From the NCBI GenBank assembly GCA_043803405.1, contig JAZDKB010000039.1:1-51307 (forward strand): DNA of 51,307 nt, given 5' to 3'. Below the pieces are notes generated by a model. That model was not told the origin of the DNA and did no database searches. It saw only the letters and a list, made by a program, of their open reading frames with translations. The number at the start of each line of letters is the position of its first letter. Position 1 is the first letter of the stretch. The DNA is from Spirochaetota bacterium (lineage in GTDB: Bacteria; Spirochaetota; UBA4802; JAFGDQ01). Below are positions 42,445 through 51,196 of this stretch, piece by piece. The position numbers were made by a program, and so were the translations under genes.

Positions 42445-42549
42445 ATGTTAAATAATAAATACAAAATATTTATTTTGTCTCATTGAGAGATTTATCGGGA
42501 GCCCGTGCGGTTTCCCTTAATGCATCTTACCGCCTTACTCACGCCCTAG
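42445..42549 (+). CDS. Putative Sec-containing leader peptide 1: MLNNKYKIFILSH-U-EIYREPVRFPLMHLTALLTP
   Basis: In-frame TGA 42484-42486; SECIS-like hairpin 42497-42516; 20 more codons to TAG; same layout in copies 2 and 3. Confidence 0.7.
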
Positions 42550-42623
42550 TGCCTCAGCTCACCTCCTGAGATACCGGCGCCGAAAAAGGCGGCCGGATTT
42601 TTAATATCTTAAGGAGGTTTTAA
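42484..42623 (+). promoter_or_regulatory. Attenuator-like structured leader, copy 1
   Basis: SECIS-like hairpin; CTCAG/CTGAG hairpin; anti-SD ACCTCCT 42561-42567; GC hairpin 42574-42596; SD AAGGAGGT 42611-42618. Confidence 0.8.
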
Positions 42624-43169
42624 ATGTTAAACAATTTAAAAAATTCAATATCGTCCAAACGGACGAAATGCGCTTCAGTTATCACGCTTTTTATAGTAAT
42701 AGCGTTCGTGCTTGCAGGATGCGCATCATTCCCGCCTTACGGCACATCCACAAAAGGCCTTGAACTGCCTATTGAAAAGGCGACTCTTAAGTTCATGGAG
42801 GATGTAAAAGCCGGCGGATACAAGATCGTAAATACAAGCGAGCTGAAGAAATGGTATGCCGAAGGCAAAAAGATGATCGTCATCAGCACGTTTCCGCCGG
42901 CGGACGACAAAGCATTGGGTACTCTTCCCTCTGCTGTAAGCGGCCCTATGCCTATGACGGAAAAAGAAGTTACCCAGGCAGTGAAGGACGGCATAATTAA
43001 GACAGCAGGCAAAGATAAGGATATGACTATTGTTGTGTATTGCGGTTTTGTGGCCTGCAGAAGGAGCCATCTGGGAGCAAAGACGCTCGCGGAAAGCGGA
43101 TATAAAAATGTTTACCGCTATCCTGGAGGCATTGCGGGCTGGAAGGAAGCATCTGCTCCTGCAAAATAA
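42624..43169 (+). CDS. Rhodanese-domain lipoprotein (sulfur/selenium transferase-like)
   Basis: Lipobox LAGC; IVVYCGFVACRRSH; VYRYPGGIAGWK. Confidence 0.88.
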   Translation: MLNNLKNSISSKRTKCASVITLFIVIAFVLAGCASFPPYGTSTKGLELPIEKATLKFMEDVKAGGYKIVNTSELKKWYAEGKKMIVISTFPPADDKALGTLPSAVSGPMPMTEKEVTQAVKDGIIKTAGKDKDMTIVVYCGFVACRRSHLGAKTLAESGYKNVYRYPGGIAGWKEASAPAK

Positions 43170-43187
43170 TTATTGAAAATATATTTG

Positions 43188-43222
43188 TGCCGGATAGACC
43201 GCTTTATGCGGTTTATCCGGCA
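43188..43222. terminator. Long hairpin after the rhodanese gene
   Basis: TGCCGGATAGACCGC-tttat-GCGGTTTATCCGGCA. Confidence 0.6.
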
Positions 43223-43232
43223 TTATGCAACC

Positions 43233-43691
43233 ATGAAGAAATTACAAATATCTCTTTCTTTTATATTGGTTTTTCTAGCTGTGTGTTGCGCCGGAAAACA
43301 GATAGAAGATGATAAGATAAAAAGACAAATAGATGTCTTTGGCGTTTATCTCTCTTCCAGTGTTGAGTATAAAGAAATTAACGGCGACCCTGCGGTTGAG
43401 GAATCGTGCTCATGTTCCGATGGATATGATCTCAATTTTGATGTACTTGATATAACAATCGGATATACGGCAAACAAAAAAATAAGAAAGATCACTACAT
43501 ATAATCCGGGTACAAGCATGTTCGGCATACGGCCGGGCATGTCTTTCAGCAGCAGCAGGCAAAAGATACTTGATGCTGGATTTAGCGAATCCGGCCGGTC
43601 TTTTATGTTCACTAACGGCAGGTATTTAGTTACTTTTCTTGTTGAGAAGAAGGATGATATTTTCGGGCTGATTATTGAAACGGCCGAATAA
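43233..43691 (+). CDS. Hypothetical exported/lipoprotein
   Basis: MKKLQISLSFILVFLAVCC signal; start moved from TTG 43173 to ATG 43233. Confidence 0.6.
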   Translation: MKKLQISLSFILVFLAVCCAGKQIEDDKIKRQIDVFGVYLSSSVEYKEINGDPAVEESCSCSDGYDLNFDVLDITIGYTANKKIRKITTYNPGTSMFGIRPGMSFSSSRQKILDAGFSESGRSFMFTNGRYLVTFLVEKKDDIFGLIIETAE

Positions 43692-43727
43692 AATTATATT
43701 TAAAGTTAAATTAAAAACAAAAACACG

Positions 43728-43835
43728 ATGTTAACAAAACAAAAAATCAAAATATTTATCGCGTTACAGTGAGCAACGCTTAGGAAGCCGGTGCGGCTTC
43801 CTAATATTGTCCTAACCGCCATAACTACGCCTTAA
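43728..43835 (+). CDS. Putative Sec-containing leader peptide 2: MLTKQKIKIFIALQ-U-ATLRKPVRLPNIVLTAITTP
   Basis: In-frame TGA 43770-43772; perfect hairpin 43780-43804; 20 more codons to TAA. Confidence 0.7.
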
Positions 43836-43912
43836 AACCTCAGTCAACCTCCTGAGATTCCGGCGCCTAAGCAGGCGGTCGGGATTTTAATATCATAAGG
43901 AGGTATTCAATT
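43770..43912 (+). promoter_or_regulatory. Attenuator-like structured leader, copy 2
   Basis: Same motif order as copy 1; anti-SD 43847-43853; SD 43897-43904. Confidence 0.8.
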
Positions 43913-44057
43913 ACTAAACAATCAAGAAGTTTGTTATCGGGCTGTAAATCCGTACGGCTACTATACGCTTTTTCCAGTGATATAATCTACAGGGAAGATT
44001 ATATTATGGCAAAGATTAATAATAATTTTATTATAAAATGAATTACAGGAGAGTAAA

Positions 44058-46754
44058 ATGAGTGATACCTTTATATTAAACGGAGAAGAAACGCCATTTA
44101 AGCAGGGTCAGATGATTCTGGAAGCGGCGCAAAATGCCGGAATCAAAATACCTACTTTATGCTATCTGAAAGGAACTACGCCTACCGGCGCATGCAGGGT
44201 TTGCCTGGTAGAAGTCAAAGGCGCGCGTTCGCTGATGGCATCATGTTCCACTCCGGTTACACCGGGGATGGAAGTAAGGACGGATAGCGGTCTTGTCCAT
44301 AGAGCGCGAAAAATGAATATTGAACTGCTGCTTGCCGGCGGCAGGCATAATTGTCTTGTCTGTGAAGCAAATGGCGATTGCCACCTGCAGGATCTGGCAT
44401 ATTCCTATAAAATCACCAATTTACGATTTAAAGAAAAAGAACGAAACAATATTTATCCGACAGAGGATCAAAACTCTTTCATTATCCGTGATTTTGGACG
44501 TTGTATCCTTTGCGGACGCTGCGTTCAGGCATGTAACGAGCTTGTAGTAAACCGCGCAATCTCGCAAGGCTATCGCGGTTCCGAAAGCAAAATTGTTACA
44601 GGCGGCGATCTGCCGTACGATAACAGCGAATGCGTATTCTGCGGTCAGTGCGTGCAAGTATGTCCTGTCGGAGCGCTGACGGAAAAGAAAGGCAAGGGAC
44701 TGGGACGATCATGGGAAGTCAAAAATGTCCGCACGACGTGTCCTTACTGCGGCGTAGGATGCCAGCAAAACCTTCATGTCAAGGGTGACCAGATAGTAAA
44801 AATTACAGCTGTTGAAGACGGTGCGCCGAACTATGGCAGATTATGCGTTAAAGGACGCTTCGCTTATGATTTCATTTACTCAAAAGACAGACTTACAACT
44901 CCGCTGATTCGTCAGAAAAACGGAGAGTTCAAGGAGGCTTCCTGGGACGAAGCGCTTGACCTTGTAGCGAAAAAATTCACAGAAATAATAAAAGAATCCG
45001 GCCCGGATTCAGTTGCCGGTATCAGCTGCGCTCGCAGTATCAATGAAGATTCTTACAATATGCAAAAGCTGTTCAGAGCCGTTTTCCAGACAAACAATAT
45101 CGACCATTGTGCCCGTGTCTGCCATGCGCCTACAGTCGCAGGTCTTGCAGCATCGTTCGGATCAGGCGCTGGCACCAACTCGATCAGCGAGTATAAAGAT
45201 GCAAAGATGTTCTTCATTATCGGATCGAACATGACAGAAGCTCATCCGGTTGCCTCCTATTATGTAAAGCAGGCAAAATTGAAGGGTGCAAAACTCATTG
45301 TTGTGGATCCCAGATACCACGAACTGGCAAAGATGTCTGATATTTATGCACAGATCAAGGTTGGTTCTGATGTGGCCTTTTTGAACGGCATAATGAATGT
45401 CCTGATAAACGAGAATCTGTACGACAAAAAATTTGTTGCTGATAACTGTACTGGCTTTGAAGATCTTAAAAAGACAGTCATGAATTATACGCCCCAAAAA
45501 GCAGCCGAGATAAGCGGAGTACCTGCTGAACAAATAATCCAGATAGCTCATCAAATGGCTGCCATAAGGCCGTCAATGCTGATTTACACATTGGGAATAA
45601 CGGAGCATTCCTGCGGTACAAACAACGTAATGAGCTGCGCCAATCTCCAGATGCTGCTTGGAAACATGGGCATTGAATTTGGCGGCGTAAACCCGCTTCG
45701 CGGACAGAACAACGTACAGGGCGCCTGCGACATGGGCGCGTTGCCGGTTGTTTTCCCTGGTTATCAGAACGTAACCGTGCCCGAGAACAGAGAAAAATTC
45801 ATAAAGGCATGGGGAGTTAAAAATCTTCCGGACAAGCCGGGATTGATGATAAACGCCATGATGGAAGGATTGCTCACCAAAAAAATACGGGCACTTTGGG
45901 TGTTCGGGGAAAATCTGGCCAATGCAGAGCCGAATATTACCCATACTGAAAAATGCCTGAACTCTGCCGAGTTTTTAGTTGTGCAGGATATTTTTCCAAA
46001 TGAAACGACAAAATTTGCTCATGTAATTCTTCCTGCCGCTGCATGGTGTGAAGACGAAGGAACATTCACAAGCCTGGAAAGGCGCGTAAGCATGGTAAGA
46101 AAGATAAAAGAAGCTCCTGGTATTGCGAAACCGGATTGGTGGATATTCAAGGAAGTCGCCAGGAAGATGGGACATGACTGGGCATCAAACAGCGCACGGG
46201 AAATCTGTGACAATGAACTGGCCGTATTGTGCCCGATGTTTGCAGGAATTAAATTTTCCAGGATTGAAAAGGACGGACTGCAATGGCCGTGTCCCGGCGA
46301 AGAACATCCCGGCACGCCGATTGTTCATAAAGACGGGAAATTCACCCATGGGAAAGGAATAATGAAAGGCATCGAATGGACCCCGCCGGAGGAAATCGCA
46401 GACAAAGATTATCCGTTGGTTTTGAGCACAGGCAGAAGGCTTTCCCAGTATCATACAAGAACGCAGACCGGCCGAAGCGGCATGGATGCTATTTACAGCC
46501 AGGAAACCGCCGATGTTTCCATTGCTGATGCAAGGGAAAAAGGAATAAAAGATGGAGAAATGATTGTCGTGAAATCCAGACGCGGGAAAGTAACTGTTCC
46601 TGCCCGGGTTACAGATGAAGTCCCCAAAGGCGTTGTCTGGATGACATTTCATTACCGCGACGGAAATTGCAACTGGCTTACCAATAATGCGTATGATACT
46701 GTAACAAAGACGCCTGAATACAAGGCCTGCGCGGTACAGATTGAAAGAGTTTAA
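44058..46754 (+). CDS. fdhF: Cytoplasmic Mo/W-bisPGD formate dehydrogenase alpha subunit, Cys-type, with N-terminal Fe-S domains
   Basis: IPTLC, GACRVCLV, CILCGRCV, CPYCGVGC, NIDHCARVCHAP, PLRGQNNVQGACDMG, TPEYKACAV; no Tat signal. Confidence 0.93.
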   Translation: MSDTFILNGEETPFKQGQMILEAAQNAGIKIPTLCYLKGTTPTGACRVCLVEVKGARSLMASCSTPVTPGMEVRTDSGLVHRARKMNIELLLAGGRHNCLVCEANGDCHLQDLAYSYKITNLRFKEKERNNIYPTEDQNSFIIRDFGRCILCGRCVQACNELVVNRAISQGYRGSESKIVTGGDLPYDNSECVFCGQCVQVCPVGALTEKKGKGLGRSWEVKNVRTTCPYCGVGCQQNLHVKGDQIVKITAVEDGAPNYGRLCVKGRFAYDFIYSKDRLTTPLIRQKNGEFKEASWDEALDLVAKKFTEIIKESGPDSVAGISCARSINEDSYNMQKLFRAVFQTNNIDHCARVCHAPTVAGLAASFGSGAGTNSISEYKDAKMFFIIGSNMTEAHPVASYYVKQAKLKGAKLIVVDPRYHELAKMSDIYAQIKVGSDVAFLNGIMNVLINENLYDKKFVADNCTGFEDLKKTVMNYTPQKAAEISGVPAEQIIQIAHQMAAIRPSMLIYTLGITEHSCGTNNVMSCANLQMLLGNMGIEFGGVNPLRGQNNVQGACDMGALPVVFPGYQNVTVPENREKFIKAWGVKNLPDKPGLMINAMMEGLLTKKIRALWVFGENLANAEPNITHTEKCLNSAEFLVVQDIFPNETTKFAHVILPAAAWCEDEGTFTSLERRVSMVRKIKEAPGIAKPDWWIFKEVARKMGHDWASNSAREICDNELAVLCPMFAGIKFSRIEKDGLQWPCPGEEHPGTPIVHKDGKFTHGKGIMKGIEWTPPEEIADKDYPLVLSTGRRLSQYHTRTQTGRSGMDAIYSQETADVSIADAREKGIKDGEMIVVKSRRGKVTVPARVTDEVPKGVVWMTFHYRDGNCNWLTNNAYDTVTKTPEYKACAVQIERV

Positions 46755-46764
46755 TTGAAGCAGC

Positions 46765-46797
46765 AAACCTTCCCGCTGCAAAAAGCGGGAAGGTTTT
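46765..46797 (+). terminator. Rho-independent terminator after fdh
   Basis: AAACCTTCCCGCT-gcaaaa-AGCGGGAAGGTTTT. Confidence 0.75.
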
Positions 46798-46852
46798 ACA
46801 AAATCGAATATATTATATGAGGAGTTAAATCAATTTTAACGTTTAATAAATT

Positions 46853-46960
46853 ATGTTAACCGGACAAAACAACAAAATAATTTTTTCCCAATATTGAGAA
46901 ACAGACCGGAAGCCCGTGTGGTTCCATAATATGTTTCCAGCCGCCTTAACTACGCCATAG
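46853..46960 (+). CDS. Putative Sec-containing leader peptide 3: MLTGQNNKIIFSQY-U-ETDRKPVWFHNMFPAALTTP
   Basis: In-frame TGA 46895-46897; hairpin 46908-46925; 20 more codons to TAG. Confidence 0.7.
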
Positions 46961-47038
46961 AACCTCAGAATACCTCCTGAGATTCCGGCGCCGGAAAAGG
47001 CGGCCGGACTTTTAATATCTTTATGGAGGTTTAAAATG
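46895..47038 (+). promoter_or_regulatory. Attenuator-like structured leader, copy 3
   Basis: Same motif order; anti-SD 46972-46978; GC hairpin 46984-47008; SD GGAGGT 47025-47030. Confidence 0.8.
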
Positions 47039-47152
47039 TTAAACAATCGCAAAAGTTTACTGTCGTGCTGTCGAACCGCACAGTCGCGATTCGTATCTTT
47101 CATTAATATAATGAACAGGGGGATTATGCTATGGAAAACGAACTATTGCTAA
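47036..47152 (+). CDS. 38-aa second uORF overlapping the hdrA start (possible translational coupler)
   Basis: Strong SD + ATG TTA AAC AAT, as at the rhodanese start; ends at TAA 22 nt inside hdrA in another frame. Confidence 0.45.
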   Translation: MLNNRKSLLSCCRTAQSRFVSFINIMNRGIMLWKTNYC

Positions 47153-50100
47153 AAGAAAAAATGCAGGAGCTTTACCGAACTTTTGGAGAGAGCAATTTTG
47201 GCGATGTTATGATAGTAGGCGGAGGGATCAGCGGCATTCAGGCAGCGCTCGATCTTGGAACCGCTGGATTTAAGGTTTACTTTGTCGAAAAATCACCGAC
47301 TGTAGGCGGCAAGATGGCCCATCTTGACAAAACATTCCCTACCAATGACTGTTCTATGTGCATTGAATCCCCTAAGTTTGTTGAATGCAACAGACATCCT
47401 AATATTGAGATCATGTCCTATTCTGAAGTTGAACGCGTAGAAGGGGAAGCGGGAGATTTCAAGGTTACTGTGATTAAGAAACCGAGATATGTAGACGAGG
47501 CTAAATGCACGGGTTGTACTGTATGTGTAGAGTACTGCCCGGTTAAGTACCCTGATGATTTTAACCAGAATATATCGAATAACAAAGCAATTCATATTTA
47601 TTTTGCCCAGGCTATTCCTTTAAAGCCTTACGTAGATGAAAGCTGTCTTTACCTTAAAGAAGGTAAATGCCGTATGTGCGAAGGAGTATGTAAGAATAAT
47701 GCAATAAATTTTAACCAGGTACCGGAGAAGGTTGAAATAAAAGTAGGGGCAATAATATTATCTCCTGGCATTGAGGCATTTAATCCTGAGATAATGAAGG
47801 AATACCATTACGGCGACTTTAAGAATGTTGTGACTGCCCTTGACTACGAAAGGCTGTTATGTGCCACCGGGCCGTACGAAGGCGAGATATTGCGTGCTTC
47901 AGACAAAAAGCATCCGCATAATATAGCATGGATTCACTGCGTCGGTTCCAGAAATGCTACAGAAGGGTCTAATAGTTATTGTTCGTCTGTGTGCTGCACA
48001 TATACCCAGAAACAGGTTATACTTACAAAAGACCATGACGGGGACGCGAAGTGCACTGTATTCCATAACGATATCCGTTCCTTTGGCAAGGATTTTGAGC
48101 GGTTTTACCAGAGAACAGCGGACCTTTCAGGGGTCCGCTTTTTCAAAAGCTATGTATCGATAATGAAAGAAGATCCGATAACCAGGAATGTAACAATACG
48201 GTATTATACACCGGATGAAGGGCTAAAAGAAGAAGAATTCGATATGGTAGTATTATCTGTCGGATTGGCTCCGCCTGCCAATGTTCAGAACCTGGCAAAT
48301 GTATTCGGGATAGAACTCAATTCCCACGGATTCTGCAAAAAAAATCCTATGAATCCAATGGAGACAACACGTCCGGGGATTTTCGTAAGCGGGGCATTCC
48401 AGGGGCCTATGGACATCCCTGAGGCGGTTCTATCCGCCAGCGGAGCAGGTTCTCAATGCGGCGAGCTCCTTTCCTACCGGAGGGGGAACCTTTCCAAAGC
48501 TAGGGTATACCCGCCGGAAAAGGATGTATCCAGTGAAGAACCAAAGATAGGAGTCTATGTGTGTCATTGCGGAGCCAATATAGGAAGGATAGTAAATGTA
48601 CCTTCCACTGTTGAGTATTCCCTTACATTGCCGAATGTTGTCCACGCAGAGGAAAGCCTCTTCATTTGTTCTACCGAAGCAGCCGCGATGCTGGCAAAAG
48701 ATATCAAAGAAAGAGGGCTTAATCGCGTAATTGTCGCTGCATGTACGCCCAGGACACATGAGCCGTTATTCAGGGATACGCTTCGTGAAGCCGGAATTAA
48801 CCAATATTATTACGACATGGCAAATATAAGAGAACATTGTTCGTGGGTACACTCAAAAGAGAAGGAAGCTGCAACACAAAAGGCAAAGGATATAATCCGG
48901 ATGTCGGCAGCGCGTGCCTGCTTTCTGGAGCCTTTGCAGGAATTTGAGCTGCCAGTCAATAAAGTTGCCATAGTAGTCGGCGGCGGCGTAGCAGGCATGA
49001 CCAGCGCTCTCTCCATAGCCAGGCAGGGACACGAGGTTCATTTGATCGAAAAGGAAAAACAGCTTGGAGGACTGGCGCGTAAACTTCATTACACCATGGA
49101 AGGACATGATGTCCAGGCATTCCTGAATGATCTTATAAAAAAGATTTATAAAAATCCTTTAATACATGTATACACAGACGCATCCATTCCGGAAGCTTCA
49201 GGTTATGTTGGAAATTTCATTACAAAAGTAAAGTCCGACAGAGGGATCGTAGAGATAAAACACGGAGCGATAGTCATTGCTATAGGCGCTGACGTTTATA
49301 AACCCACTGAATATCTTTATGGGCAGGATGACAGGGTGTTAACCCAGCTTGAGCTGGAAGAAAAGATAACCAATAAAGATGAAGTGATAAAAAATGCAAA
49401 AAATACTGTGATGATCCAGTGCGTAGGCTGCAGGAATGAAGAAAGAAATTATTGCAGCAAGATATGCTGCGGAGAGTCTGTAAAGAATGCCTTAAAACTG
49501 AAAGAAATAAATCCTGAGATGGATATCTACATACTATTCAGGGATATGAGAACATACGGATTTAATGAGGATTATTACAGGGAAGCAAGAGGCAAAAATG
49601 TAAGATTTATCCGTTATGAGACGGATGACAAACCCCTGGTTGAAGCTGTTAAGGAAAACGGCAAGAGTATTCTTAGGATTACCGTAACAGATCAGACATT
49701 AAATAAGAAGGTAGCCATAGATGCCGATGTGATTGCCCTGGCTGTGGCAATAATTCCATCTGCCGGCAGCCAGGAAATATCACGGTTGTTTAAAGTGTCT
49801 ATGGGGCCGGATGGTTTCTGCCAGGAGGCACATGTTAAATTAAGGCCTGTTGACTTTGCCGCGGAAGGCGTTTACCTGTGCGGTATAGCGCATTACCCCA
49901 AGCTTATATCTGAAACTATCAACCAGGCTTACGGGGCAGCAGGACGTGCATTAACTCTTCTTGCAAATGATACTGTCGTGGCATCGGGCTCTGTTTGTAC
50001 TGTAGATGAAAAAATGTGTATGGGATGTGGGGCATGTGCTCCTGCGTGTACATATAACGCGGTAACGCTTAACGAAACAAAACAGGGAAGAAAAGCCTCG

Positions 50101-50226
50101 GTTATCCCTGTGCTTTGTAAAGGATGCGGTCTTTGCAACTCAAAATGTCCGACAGGGGCTATACAGCTGAAGCATTATACCGATAAAGAGCTTTTCGGCC
50201 AGATTCTTGCCGGTCTTTCCGAATGA
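47131..50226 (+). CDS. hdrA: Heterodisulfide reductase subunit A-like flavo-iron-sulfur protein with duplicated FAD modules
   Basis: GGGISG, LDKTFPTNDCSMC, CVGSR...YCSSVCC, VYVCHCGANI, ANIREHCSWVH, second GGGVAG, EAHVKLRPVD, C-terminal ferredoxin. Confidence 0.93.
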   Translation: MENELLLKEKMQELYRTFGESNFGDVMIVGGGISGIQAALDLGTAGFKVYFVEKSPTVGGKMAHLDKTFPTNDCSMCIESPKFVECNRHPNIEIMSYSEVERVEGEAGDFKVTVIKKPRYVDEAKCTGCTVCVEYCPVKYPDDFNQNISNNKAIHIYFAQAIPLKPYVDESCLYLKEGKCRMCEGVCKNNAINFNQVPEKVEIKVGAIILSPGIEAFNPEIMKEYHYGDFKNVVTALDYERLLCATGPYEGEILRASDKKHPHNIAWIHCVGSRNATEGSNSYCSSVCCTYTQKQVILTKDHDGDAKCTVFHNDIRSFGKDFERFYQRTADLSGVRFFKSYVSIMKEDPITRNVTIRYYTPDEGLKEEEFDMVVLSVGLAPPANVQNLANVFGIELNSHGFCKKNPMNPMETTRPGIFVSGAFQGPMDIPEAVLSASGAGSQCGELLSYRRGNLSKARVYPPEKDVSSEEPKIGVYVCHCGANIGRIVNVPSTVEYSLTLPNVVHAEESLFICSTEAAAMLAKDIKERGLNRVIVAACTPRTHEPLFRDTLREAGINQYYYDMANIREHCSWVHSKEKEAATQKAKDIIRMSAARACFLEPLQEFELPVNKVAIVVGGGVAGMTSALSIARQGHEVHLIEKEKQLGGLARKLHYTMEGHDVQAFLNDLIKKIYKNPLIHVYTDASIPEASGYVGNFITKVKSDRGIVEIKHGAIVIAIGADVYKPTEYLYGQDDRVLTQLELEEKITNKDEVIKNAKNTVMIQCVGCRNEERNYCSKICCGESVKNALKLKEINPEMDIYILFRDMRTYGFNEDYYREARGKNVRFIRYETDDKPLVEAVKENGKSILRITVTDQTLNKKVAIDADVIALAVAIIPSAGSQEISRLFKVSMGPDGFCQEAHVKLRPVDFAAEGVYLCGIAHYPKLISETINQAYGAAGRALTLLANDTVVASGSVCTVDEKMCMGCGACAPACTYNAVTLNETKQGRKASVIPVLCKGCGLCNSKCPTGAIQLKHYTDKELFGQILAGLSE

Positions 50227-50350: not shown

Positions 50351-51196
50351 ATGAGTTCAGAAGGTAAATTCACGCCAAAGATGTTAGGTATAATCTGTAA
50401 CTGGTGCTGTTATGGGGGAGCTGACCTATGCGGAGTTTCGCGCTTTCAATATCCTACTTATATTAGATTGATAAGGGTGATGTGCTCAGGCAGGGTTGAC
50501 CTGAAACACATATTTCTTGCTTTTGCGAACGGAGCGGACGCGATGTTTGTCGGCGGATGCCATATTAATGACTGCCATTATAATCCGGAAGGAAATTATG
50601 ACGCGCTTAGTATGGTAAATCTATGCAGGAAATTGCTGGAACACATTGGAATAAACCCGAAACGCTTAAGACTGGAATGGGTATCGGCAGGTGAGGGTAT
50701 CCGTTTCGCAAATATTATGAATGAATTTGCCAAAGAGATTGAGGGTTTGGGGCCTTTGGGCAAAAGCGAAGGAATAGATGCGAATGAATTAAAATCCAGA
50801 GTTGAGGAAATCACAAAGCTCATCCCGTACTTTAAACTGGTAAAAATGAAGGAACTGGCGCTGCATAATCAGGATCAGGAATCGTATACTAAACTTTACA
50901 CAACTGAAGAAGTGGAAAAACTAATCCGCGAAGTACCTGCTTACTATATCGAACCGGAGAAATGCCAGGCATGTATGACCTGTGCCAGAAGATGCCCAGC
51001 AGACGCGATAATAAGCGCAAAGCAGGAAGTGCATATAATAGATCAGGAAAAATGCATAAAATGCGGGACATGCATAGAAGCCTGTCCGCCGAAATTCAAG
51101 GCAATTACAAAGATAGTTGGTGCACCTGTTCCGCCATCACTTCCTGAAGGAAAAAGAGCCGTAATCAGAAAGAGTAAAGAAAAAGAGGTTGCATAA
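50351..51196 (+). CDS. mvhD: MvhD/FlxD (2Fe-2S) subunit fused to a C-terminal 2x[4Fe-4S] ferredoxin
   Basis: CNWCCYGGAD, RVMCSGRVD, GCHINDCHY, WVSAGEG; CQACMTC...CP, CIKCGTC...CP. Confidence 0.9.
   Translation: MSSEGKFTPKMLGIICNWCCYGGADLCGVSRFQYPTYIRLIRVMCSGRVDLKHIFLAFANGADAMFVGGCHINDCHYNPEGNYDALSMVNLCRKLLEHIGINPKRLRLEWVSAGEGIRFANIMNEFAKEIEGLGPLGKSEGIDANELKSRVEEITKLIPYFKLVKMKELALHNQDQESYTKLYTTEEVEKLIREVPAYYIEPEKCQACMTCARRCPADAIISAKQEVHIIDQEKCIKCGTCIEACPPKFKAITKIVGAPVPPSLPEGKRAVIRKSKEKEVA

Follow-up and report, generated by a model that had tools for sequence, protein, structure and literature searches.

The question raised by the locus studied here is why a UGA codon and a hairpin resembling a selenocysteine insertion sequence (SECIS) recur in leader regions and not in an enzyme gene. 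The locus lies in a stretch of 51,307 nucleotides (nt) from a Spirochaetota bacterium (GenBank assembly GCA_043803405.1, contig JAZDKB010000039.1, forward strand), the whole of which is called the window below. The original prediction, made from the sequence alone, placed a SECIS-like hairpin 10 nt after each of three leader UGAs. On the basis of conservation, covariation, modelled folding and gene content, it is probable that these leaders are selenocysteine (Sec)-sensing, ribosome-mediated transcription attenuators, through which the presence of selenium would turn the downstream genes off.

The window contains three homologous leaders of about 180 nt each, with a column identity of 78%, and the pattern of the leader core occurs three times in it against zero expected. 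A fourth copy was found in the same genome on contig C15, and covariance models detected only these four. Each leader presents, in order, an ATG, 12-13 sense codons, the UGA, a 10-nt spacer, the hairpin, a first box (box 1, CCGCC) and a second one (box 2, CGCC), followed by a second in-frame stop, a small hairpin (CUCAG/CUGAG), a GC-rich bulged stem, a T tract, a GGAGG motif and the start of the next gene. The UGA is in frame with an ATG located 13 or 14 codons upstream (ATGs at 42445, 43728 and 46853) and the second stop occupies the same column in all four leaders of this genome. From position -6 of the UGA to the end of the T tract, exactly 131 nt were counted in all four copies, with no indel.

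The three hairpins are found where the original prediction had put them, each exactly 10 nt past an in-frame UGA (42484, 43770 and 46895). They are made of a 6-7 base-pair stem and a 5-nt loop (CGUGC, GGUGC or CGUGU), in which G and U stand at +19 and +20 after the UGA in the three window copies. Two details had to be amended. The spacer, described as unconserved, is not wholly so, its first base being a G in 3/3 window copies and in 77/104 relatives; as to the apical GU, the G is invariant among the relatives (106/106) but the next base is U in 64 of them and G in 42. When each is folded by itself, the hairpins do not stand out (z-scores of -0.86, -3.24 and -1.09, not significant), and for leader 3 the isolated 37-mer has another minimum-energy fold. 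Since the leaders are homologous along about 180 nt, the agreement among the window copies reflects shared descent, and the stronger evidence against chance is the conservation and covariation over 106 distinct copies, not the mutual likeness of the three.

These relatives were collected in several steps. With a first covariance model built from the 4 own copies, leaders were detected in 8/61 related genomes, the organism's own included. A pattern scan over one genome per species returned at least 80 loci; among the 80 listed, 21 matched the covariance model and 59 are chance matches, mostly in GC-rich genomes. The 21 model-matched loci belong to uncultured Leptospirales/Spirochaetota, to Syntrophorhabdaceae/-ales, to a Syntrophus metagenome-assembled genome (MAG) and to 'Deltaproteobacteria' MAGs. 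A second model, made from 28 sequences, revealed leaders in 5/151 genomes sampled across the phylum of the organism, all five in its own order, and in 50/96 genomes of the class holding the Syntrophorhabdaceae MAG (86 matches, 1-3 per genome). After removal of duplicates, 106 distinct leaders were retained, from one spirochaete order and one deltaproteobacterial-type class. In one genome, two identical leaders stand in tandem, 337 nt apart (L171:201-339 and 538-676, G220:C1). By eye, the first 230 residues of the double-cubane reductase found 3' of the leader look nearly identical between spirochaete and Syntrophorhabdales-type genomes (L009, L010, L012, L035, L053, L072 and L091 compared with L013), a resemblance which suggests a lateral transfer of leader and operon between the phyla.

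The reading frame of the leader is conserved on both sides of the UGA, itself kept in 104/106 copies. The frame which precedes it comprises 12 codons in 62/104 copies and 14 codons in 16/104, and in 99/104 an ATG stands 8 or more codons ahead of the UGA. No in-frame stop occurs within 51 nt after the UGA in any of the 104 copies, against 52 and 25 copies with a stop in the other two frames. The second stop is located at +63 nt in 86/104 copies and at +60 nt in 7; a Pro codon precedes it in 85/104, mostly as a Pro-Pro pair encoded by box 2 itself. In the 28-sequence alignment, indels that fall between the UGA and the second stop measure 3 nt, and in the 106-copy alignment only a few rows show single-base length changes in the stretch from the UGA to the hairpin. 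A conserved Ala at +16 and a conserved Pro at +20 each make use of all four codons. Upstream of the UGA, the residues I-F-I/V-P-L-G/S/D are conserved with synonymous variety (Phe as TTT in 47 and TTC in 20 copies, Pro as all four codons, Leu as TTA in 43 and TTG in 25), suggesting that the nascent peptide may matter when the ribosome arrives at the UGA; the residue after the UGA is also conserved (E/G). Within the hairpin, the peptide changes radically (V/G and R/W alternating with the loops CGUGC and CGGGU) and the pairing is kept, which indicates that the RNA is what is under selection in this region.

Folding of the four own copies with RNAalifold yielded the hairpin together with a long-range fold that joins box 1 to the 3' terminator arm and box 2 to the 5' arm; both boxes lie within the read-through frame. 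This predicted fold is an antiterminator, which would exclude the terminator. Covariation was measured on a MAFFT alignment of the 106 sequences, using 500 column shuffles and five measures. The SECIS-like hairpin is paired at 96.9%, and 4/6 of its inner pairs are changed on both sides, one of them reading AU in 41 sequences, GU in 28 and GC in 27. Box 1 and the terminator 3' arm are paired at 86.3%, with 5/6 pairs changed on both sides, box 2 and the 5' arm at 93-96%, and the terminator at 89.5-96% with covariation; one terminator column covaries with each of its two alternative partners, in the antiterminator and in the terminator. None of the 500 shuffles equalled the observed score of the hairpin or attained any of the five measures for the terminator and the antiterminator, it being understood that related sequences can beat shuffles for percent pairing and covariation score even where no structure exists. 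More weight belongs to the slid controls, in which pairing falls to 30-56% when the partners are displaced by 1-3 columns, and to the number of pairs that changed on both sides. The 28-sequence alignment gives the same covariation picture. The CCUCC motif of the small hairpin was considered for an anti-Shine-Dalgarno role with the downstream GGAGG and this role was set aside for want of support: the pairing is 79% complementary, no covariation is seen and 176/500 shuffles do as well.

In 4/4 own leaders the antiterminator is the minimum-energy fold, better by 5.2-8.0 kcal/mol than the forced terminator; the terminators alone amount to -11.8 to -14.6 kcal/mol. When a ribosome was masked at the second stop, the terminator was obtained in 86/93 evaluable leaders.

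Observed are an anatomy that is conserved, a frame that stays open beyond the UGA, two covarying structures that exclude each other, the gene content and the Sec machinery of the host; from these we infer Sec insertion at the leader UGA, the polarity (selenium = OFF) and the timing of ribosome and polymerase. In presence of selenium, SelB and Sec-tRNA(Sec) would decode the UGA as Sec and the reading-through ribosome would translate 20 more codons up to the conserved second stop. A Pro or Pro-Pro at the end of a frame may slow release. The ribosome at the second stop would cover box 2 and part of box 1, allowing the terminator to fold, and the downstream genes would be off. When selenium is scarce, the ribosome would stop or be released at the UGA with a footprint reaching only the foot of the hairpin; the free boxes could then pair with the terminator arms, the antiterminator would form, and the polymerase would continue into the downstream genes. 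The functions switched in this way would be Cys substitutes for selenoenzymes (FdhA, HdrA and FlpD) as well as selenium uptake and trafficking. The proposed polarity fits this content of Cys isoenzymes and selenium-acquisition genes.

The Cys nature of these enzymes is apparent from the genome itself. A second FdhA-HdrA-FlpD set, 63-73% identical to the window set, is present on contig C4 with an in-frame UGA in place of Cys355 (FdhA), Cys77 (HdrA) and Cys19 (FlpD), which makes the window cluster the Cys counterpart of a Sec operon. Covariance models found no leader of this family at the C4 operon, whose contig ends just past flpD. In the whole family, the downstream homologues which cover the site of the organism's own Sec paralogue have a Cys there in 35/35 cases (FdhA 10/10, HdrA 23/23 and FlpD 2/2).

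To describe the regulon, a maximum of three downstream frames per leader, each of 70 residues or more, was taken, giving 208 frames from 103 leaders, and the resulting BLASTP clusters were named from one representative each. The double-cubane reductases (HGD-D) form a cluster of 52 frames; the others are HdrA-like proteins (24 frames), reductase activator ATPases (19), FdhA-like proteins (11), cysteine-desulfurase family enzymes (10), TusA/YedF-like proteins (9), rhodaneses (8), MauE (6), parts of ATP-binding cassette (ABC) transporters (clusters of 6, 4 and 3), Se_S_carrier (DUF3343) and full-length SelB paralogues (5 each), FlpD, DUF169 and a GT2-DUF2064-ArsS '(seleno)protein' (2 each) and a YedE putative selenium transporter (1), to which a few unrelated genes have to be added. 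The YedE putative selenium transporter, the selenium metabolism protein YedF, SelB, the (seleno)protein ArsS and the double-cubane reductase exceed their NCBIfam cut-offs, and Pfam Se_S_carrier/DUF3343 is also encountered among the downstream genes. YedE, YedF and DUF3343 figure as candidate selenium-metabolism genes in the abstract of PMC5322559. In 58/103 cases the first downstream frame begins at most 40 nt past the end of the leader; these genes must be transcribed through the leader terminator, since no room is left for a separate promoter. Short HGD-D frames of 81-193 residues after some leaders were considered as Sec-codon genes and discarded: on read-through they show frameshifts, deletions or TAA, and no conserved UGA.

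A full-length SelB gene is located 3' of a leader in 5 loci, usually followed by a Cys-type HdrA gene; examples are L175 (G258:C172), L183 (G210:C131), L188 (G211:C10) and L142 (G266:C5). The one representative scanned, that of L175, reaches 326.9 bits on TIGR00475 (cut-off 242). As genomes with a leader-linked SelB hold two SelB matches, the linked copy may be a second, starvation-induced Sec elongation factor.

The organism possesses the Sec machinery: a tRNA-Sec (C26:8475-8566), a SelB over the NCBIfam cut-off (C26:10389-12197) and a SelD with an in-frame UGA. Its real SECIS elements, with which the original prediction had proposed a comparison, have spacers of about 11-14 nt overall and G-containing loops (fdhA-Sec, 12-nt spacer and loop GGUCU; hdrA-Sec, 14-nt spacer and loop AGGU; selD, loop GGC); they are comparable to the leader hairpins in geometry and unlike them in sequence. 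The bacterial SECIS geometry claimed for the leaders was borne out by the UGA in 104/106 copies, the 10-nt distance, the invariant loop G, the open frame after the UGA and the Sec machinery of the host, and the SECIS reading is supported by all the tests made at the level of sequence. Among the 61 related genomes, SelB exceeds the cut-off in 8/8 leader genomes, as it does in two further leader genomes from the phylum sample, and 0/15 genomes devoid of SelB carry a leader. In the deltaproteobacterial-type class, SelB occurs in 85/96 genomes and its co-occurrence with the leader is uninformative because it is nearly universal there.

Several observations weigh against the attenuator reading. No Shine-Dalgarno sequence of the GGAGG type precedes the upstream ATGs of the three window leaders, where the DNA is A/T-rich; purine-rich stretches are found before the upstream frame in some relatives. 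Rfam SECIS families do not match the leaders, either at the gathering score or at E values up to 10. SECIS_3 and SECIS_2, whose models include enzyme coding sequence, match only the real fdhA-Sec site of this genome, below the gathering score. The leader loops (CGUGC or CGGGU) also differ from the loops of the genome's real SECIS elements. Some controlled genes have no evident link to selenium, such as those for B12-binding/URO-D proteins and a C92 peptidase. In the deltaproteobacterial-type class, 6/11 assemblies without a SelB match still carry leaders; 5/5 of those tested have SelA and 2/5 a SelB wing domain. The leader terminators were not listed by a simple promoter/terminator scan, because their stems are bulged, and promoter-like matches numbered 13, no commoner than among shuffled sequences (10.4). 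A look-up of sequencing runs with this sequence listed no RNA run and one DNA run with a small share of the sequence's words. When the ribosome is placed at the UGA, the antiterminator is the equilibrium minimum-energy fold of 44/93 leaders and the terminator that of 45/93. A clear equilibrium change from antiterminator to terminator was seen in only 40/93 copies, for which reason equilibrium folding was dropped as the sole test of the switch. About half of the family would thus have to rely on the order of folding, with a kinetic decision like that of classic attenuators; when the transcript is truncated immediately ahead of the 3' arm, box 2 is already paired with the 5' arm in 68/106 copies. 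Finally, 2/106 copies lack the UGA and have TAA in one case and CGA in the other. These natural variants are L178 (G213:C160) and L187 (G208:C35), the latter at a contig end. If the attenuator model is true, the TAA and CGA leaders should be constitutively ON and OFF, respectively.

Four other explanations were weighed. The leader could be an ordinary upstream-frame or RNA switch responding to a non-selenium signal, the UGA being the plain stop of a 12-14 codon frame and the hairpin serving to pause the polymerase or forming part of a fold that binds a ligand or protein. Terminator/antiterminator pairs are common to many switches, singly folded hairpins are unexceptional here, and the Met-type ABC transporter, cysteine desulfurase, TusA/DsrE and rhodanese genes of the regulon are possibly sulfur genes. 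We nevertheless hold this unlikely, as a plain stop would not require the frame beyond the UGA and the second stop to be conserved, nor the stop to be UGA, never UAA or UAG, in 104/106 copies with an invariant loop G at SECIS distance. The controlled isoforms of selenoenzymes are exclusively Cys forms, named selenium genes are controlled as well, and no Rfam family of any kind, riboswitches included, covers the leaders at the gathering score or at E values up to 10.

Quite unlikely too, in our opinion, is an operator function in which SelB, with or without Sec-tRNA, binds the hairpin and shifts the RNA fold or blocks ribosomes with no Sec being inserted. A SECIS-like hairpin in a 5' leader, a SelB paralogue itself 3' of the leader in 5 loci and the SECIS-like element that reportedly exists in the 5' region of E. 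coli selAB all speak for it, but simple binding leaves four conserved features unexplained: the in-frame UGA at a fixed 10 nt, the 12 codons that lead up to it, the frame left open beyond it (stops in 0/104 copies, compared with 52 and 25 in the other frames) and a second stop that lies at +63 nt on the antiterminator boxes.

It is very improbable that the leader is a small selenoprotein gene of 33-35 residues with its own function (selenium storage or carriage, for example) and its own terminator, downstream regulation being incidental. The complete frame with UGA, SECIS and conserved length would agree with such a gene, as would the residues conserved around the UGA despite synonymous codon variety (F-x-P-L-G/S/D before, E/G after); the radical changes of the hairpin-region peptide under a pairing that is kept, the covariation of antiterminator with terminator and the 58/103 downstream genes read through the terminator would not. 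A switch built from the same parts with the opposite polarity, in which Sec insertion turns the genes on, is just as improbable: the direction selenium = OFF is inferred, and a SelB paralogue or selenium-trafficking genes could be wanted with selenium present, but the strands covered by the reading-through ribosome belong to the antiterminator and not to the terminator, the controlled FdhA, HdrA and FlpD are Cys forms and the Sec operon of contig C4 has no leader.

The positions of the leader elements and of the genes placed under them are collected in Table 1.

Table 1. Elements of the three window leaders, genes assigned to them and the Sec operon of contig C4.
Feature	Position	Strand	Remark
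Leader 1, upstream frame	42445..42483	+	ATG + 12 sense codons (MLNNKYKIFILSH); in frame with UGA
Leader 1, in-frame UGA	42484..42486	+	proposed Sec codon
Leader 1, read-through extension	42487..42549	+	20 codons; second stop TAG at 42547-42549
Leader 1, SECIS-like hairpin	42497..42516	+	GGGAGCC-CGTGC-GGTTTCC(C), loop CGUGC
Leader 1, antiterminator 5' strands	42530..42545	+	whole span
Leader 1, box 1	42530-42536	+	CCGCCUU; partner, terminator 3' arm
Leader 1, box 2	42542-42545	+	CGCC; partner, terminator 5' arm
Leader 1, small hairpin	42553..42570	+	CUCAG/CUGAG; CCUCC within loop and 3' arm
Leader 1, intrinsic terminator	42574..42608	+	CCGGCGCC-GAAAAA-GGCGGCCGG, then T tract 42597-42608
Rhodanese-domain lipoprotein gene	42624..43169	+	assigned to leader 1; Shine-Dalgarno GGAGG at 42613-42617, 16 nt after leader
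Leader 2, upstream frame	43728..43772	+	14 codons + UGA (43770-43772)
Leader 2, SECIS-like hairpin	43780..43804	+	GGAAGCC-GGTGC-GGCTTCC, core 43783-43801
Leader 2, boxes and second stop	43816..43835	+	box 1 43816-43822, box 2 43828-43831, TAA 43833-43835
Leader 2, small hairpin and terminator	43839..43894	+	hairpin 43839-43856, terminator 43860-43882, T tract 43883-43894
FdhA-like formate dehydrogenase gene	44058..46754	+	assigned to leader 2; Cys355; C4 paralogue has UGA at that position
Leader 3, upstream frame	46853..46897	+	14 codons + UGA (46895-46897)
Leader 3, SECIS-like hairpin	46908..46925	+	GGAAGCC-CGTGT-GGTTCC, loop CGUGU, one bulged G
Leader 3, boxes and second stop	46941..46960	+	box 1 46941-46947, box 2 46953-46956, TAG 46958-46960
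Leader 3, small hairpin and terminator	46964..47019	+	hairpin 46964-46981, terminator 46985-47007, T tract 47008-47019
HdrA-like gene	47131-50226	+	assigned to leader 3; Cys77; Cys counterpart of Sec paralogue on C4
FlpD/MvhD-like gene	50351-51196	+	assigned to leader 3; Cys19; Cys counterpart of Sec paralogue on C4
C4 Sec operon	G000:C4:208375-219502 (L020)		UGAs: FdhA 209431, HdrA 215690, FlpD 218702

Between the rhodanese gene and leader 2, positions 43173-43691 hold a frame of 152-172 residues without Pfam match, which is probably also under leader 1 since it is co-directional. Among NCBIfam models, the rhodanese protein matches only the rhodanese portion of 'rhodanese/DsbD fusion-like selenoprotein TsoB' (66.7 bits, far under the cut-off of 805). 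The lipoprotein may be the Cys counterpart of a selenoprotein domain; a search by tblastn found no Sec paralogue of it in its own genome. The first codons of the rhodanese gene (ATGTTAAACAAT...) recur 3' of the terminator in leaders 2 and 3 (42624-42650, 43909-43935 and 47036-47152). The repeat of leader 2 is degenerate (ATT ACT AAA CAA T) and that of leader 3 forms a 38-codon frame overlapping the start of hdrA. This recurrence suggests that the leaders spread by duplication along with the 5' end of a gene.

The leader of contig C15 heads a long operon (G000:C15:17490-30100; L019:3490-16083). Its first part encodes a double-cubane-cluster reductase, an activator ATPase, a Met-type ABC transporter (MetN/MetI/NlpA-type) and a NifB-like radical SAM protein. 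The rest encodes NifH, over its cut-off, two NifD/K-like proteins, a second reductase, a cysteine-desulfurase-family enzyme and a TusA-DsrE (YedF-like) protein. This operon may constitute a selenium (or sulfur) scavenging pathway with nitrogenase-like chemistry.

The proposed switch can be compared with several known systems. The amino-acid attenuators with a leader peptide are those of trpL, hisL, leuL and pheL. The leaders described here share with them a short upstream frame and would also share a choice between antiterminator and intrinsic terminator dictated by the position of the ribosome, and the sensing of a charged-tRNA supply. They differ in that the sensing codon would be a recoded stop, UGA, needing SelB and a SECIS hairpin, that the alternative to decoding would be termination or stalling at a stop codon and not a stall at a sense codon, and that the output consists of selenium-free isoenzymes and selenium uptake or trafficking genes in place of a biosynthetic operon. 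Like the SECIS of selenoprotein genes (fdhF/fdhA), the leader hairpin stands 10-14 nt past an in-frame UGA, with a G-rich apical loop, a conserved G and a continuing frame; unlike it, it belongs to a frame of 33-35 codons, is conserved in sequence in its own right across two phyla and matches no Rfam SECIS family. In E. coli, Thanbichler and Bock are said to have described in 2002 a SECIS-like element in the selAB 5' region, with SelB binding near the start site. There also a SECIS-type hairpin would serve regulation and not enzyme synthesis, but that element reportedly needs neither an in-frame UGA nor a read-through frame, whereas the leader keeps the UGA, the frame and the second stop.

The Sec/Cys switch of Methanococcus maripaludis uses a protein regulator. 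The abstract of PMC11097638 reports a selenium-dependent switch between Sec and Cys isoenzymes in this organism, the Cys isoforms being used during selenium depletion as proposed for the present leaders; unlike them, the system is archaeal, and no leader, UGA or SECIS sensor is described in that abstract. In Treponema primitia, selenium controls the transcription of fdhF(Sec) by translational coupling, according to PMC3892789, which also describes the trp attenuator case. Success or failure in decoding a UGA reads the selenium status in T. primitia as well and is passed on to transcription elongation. There, however, the UGA and SECIS lie inside the selenoenzyme gene and a lack of selenium truncates the same transcript; here a dedicated leader with a terminator/antiterminator switch would control other genes, with the opposite polarity. 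According to the same article, no report existed of a natural attenuator that relies on a rare amino acid. Full-text literature searches, with subscription journals outside their coverage, found no description of a UGA/SECIS leader switch, and term look-ups in PMC13188914, a 2026 review of prokaryotic selenoproteomes, and in PMC1794560 did not find such a leader.

Selenium sensing and Sec/Cys isoenzyme switching in bacteria are largely unknown, and the leader offers a simple and testable mechanism for them, one that would do without a dedicated regulator protein and take the decoding event itself as its measurement. If the model is true, classic attenuation would be extended to a recoded stop codon, the leader would become a computational marker for selenium-starvation genes, the double-cubane reductases and a nitrogenase-like system would acquire candidate functions in selenium acquisition, and a compact selenium- or SelB-dependent expression switch would be possible. 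More tentatively, and with somewhat more doubt than assent, we propose that the ribosome, SelB and the SECIS hairpin together form a natural sensor, in which a recoded stop in a leader peptide gauges the supply of Sec-tRNA(Sec) and thereby governs an entire regulon of selenium starvation, in two phyla or more, and that by association genes of unknown natural function take part in selenium scavenging or trafficking. The genes which would receive such a role are the double-cubane-cluster reductase and its ATPase, the nitrogenase-like NifB/H/DK set, DUF169, the MauE-rhodanese pairs and the second, starvation-induced SelB.

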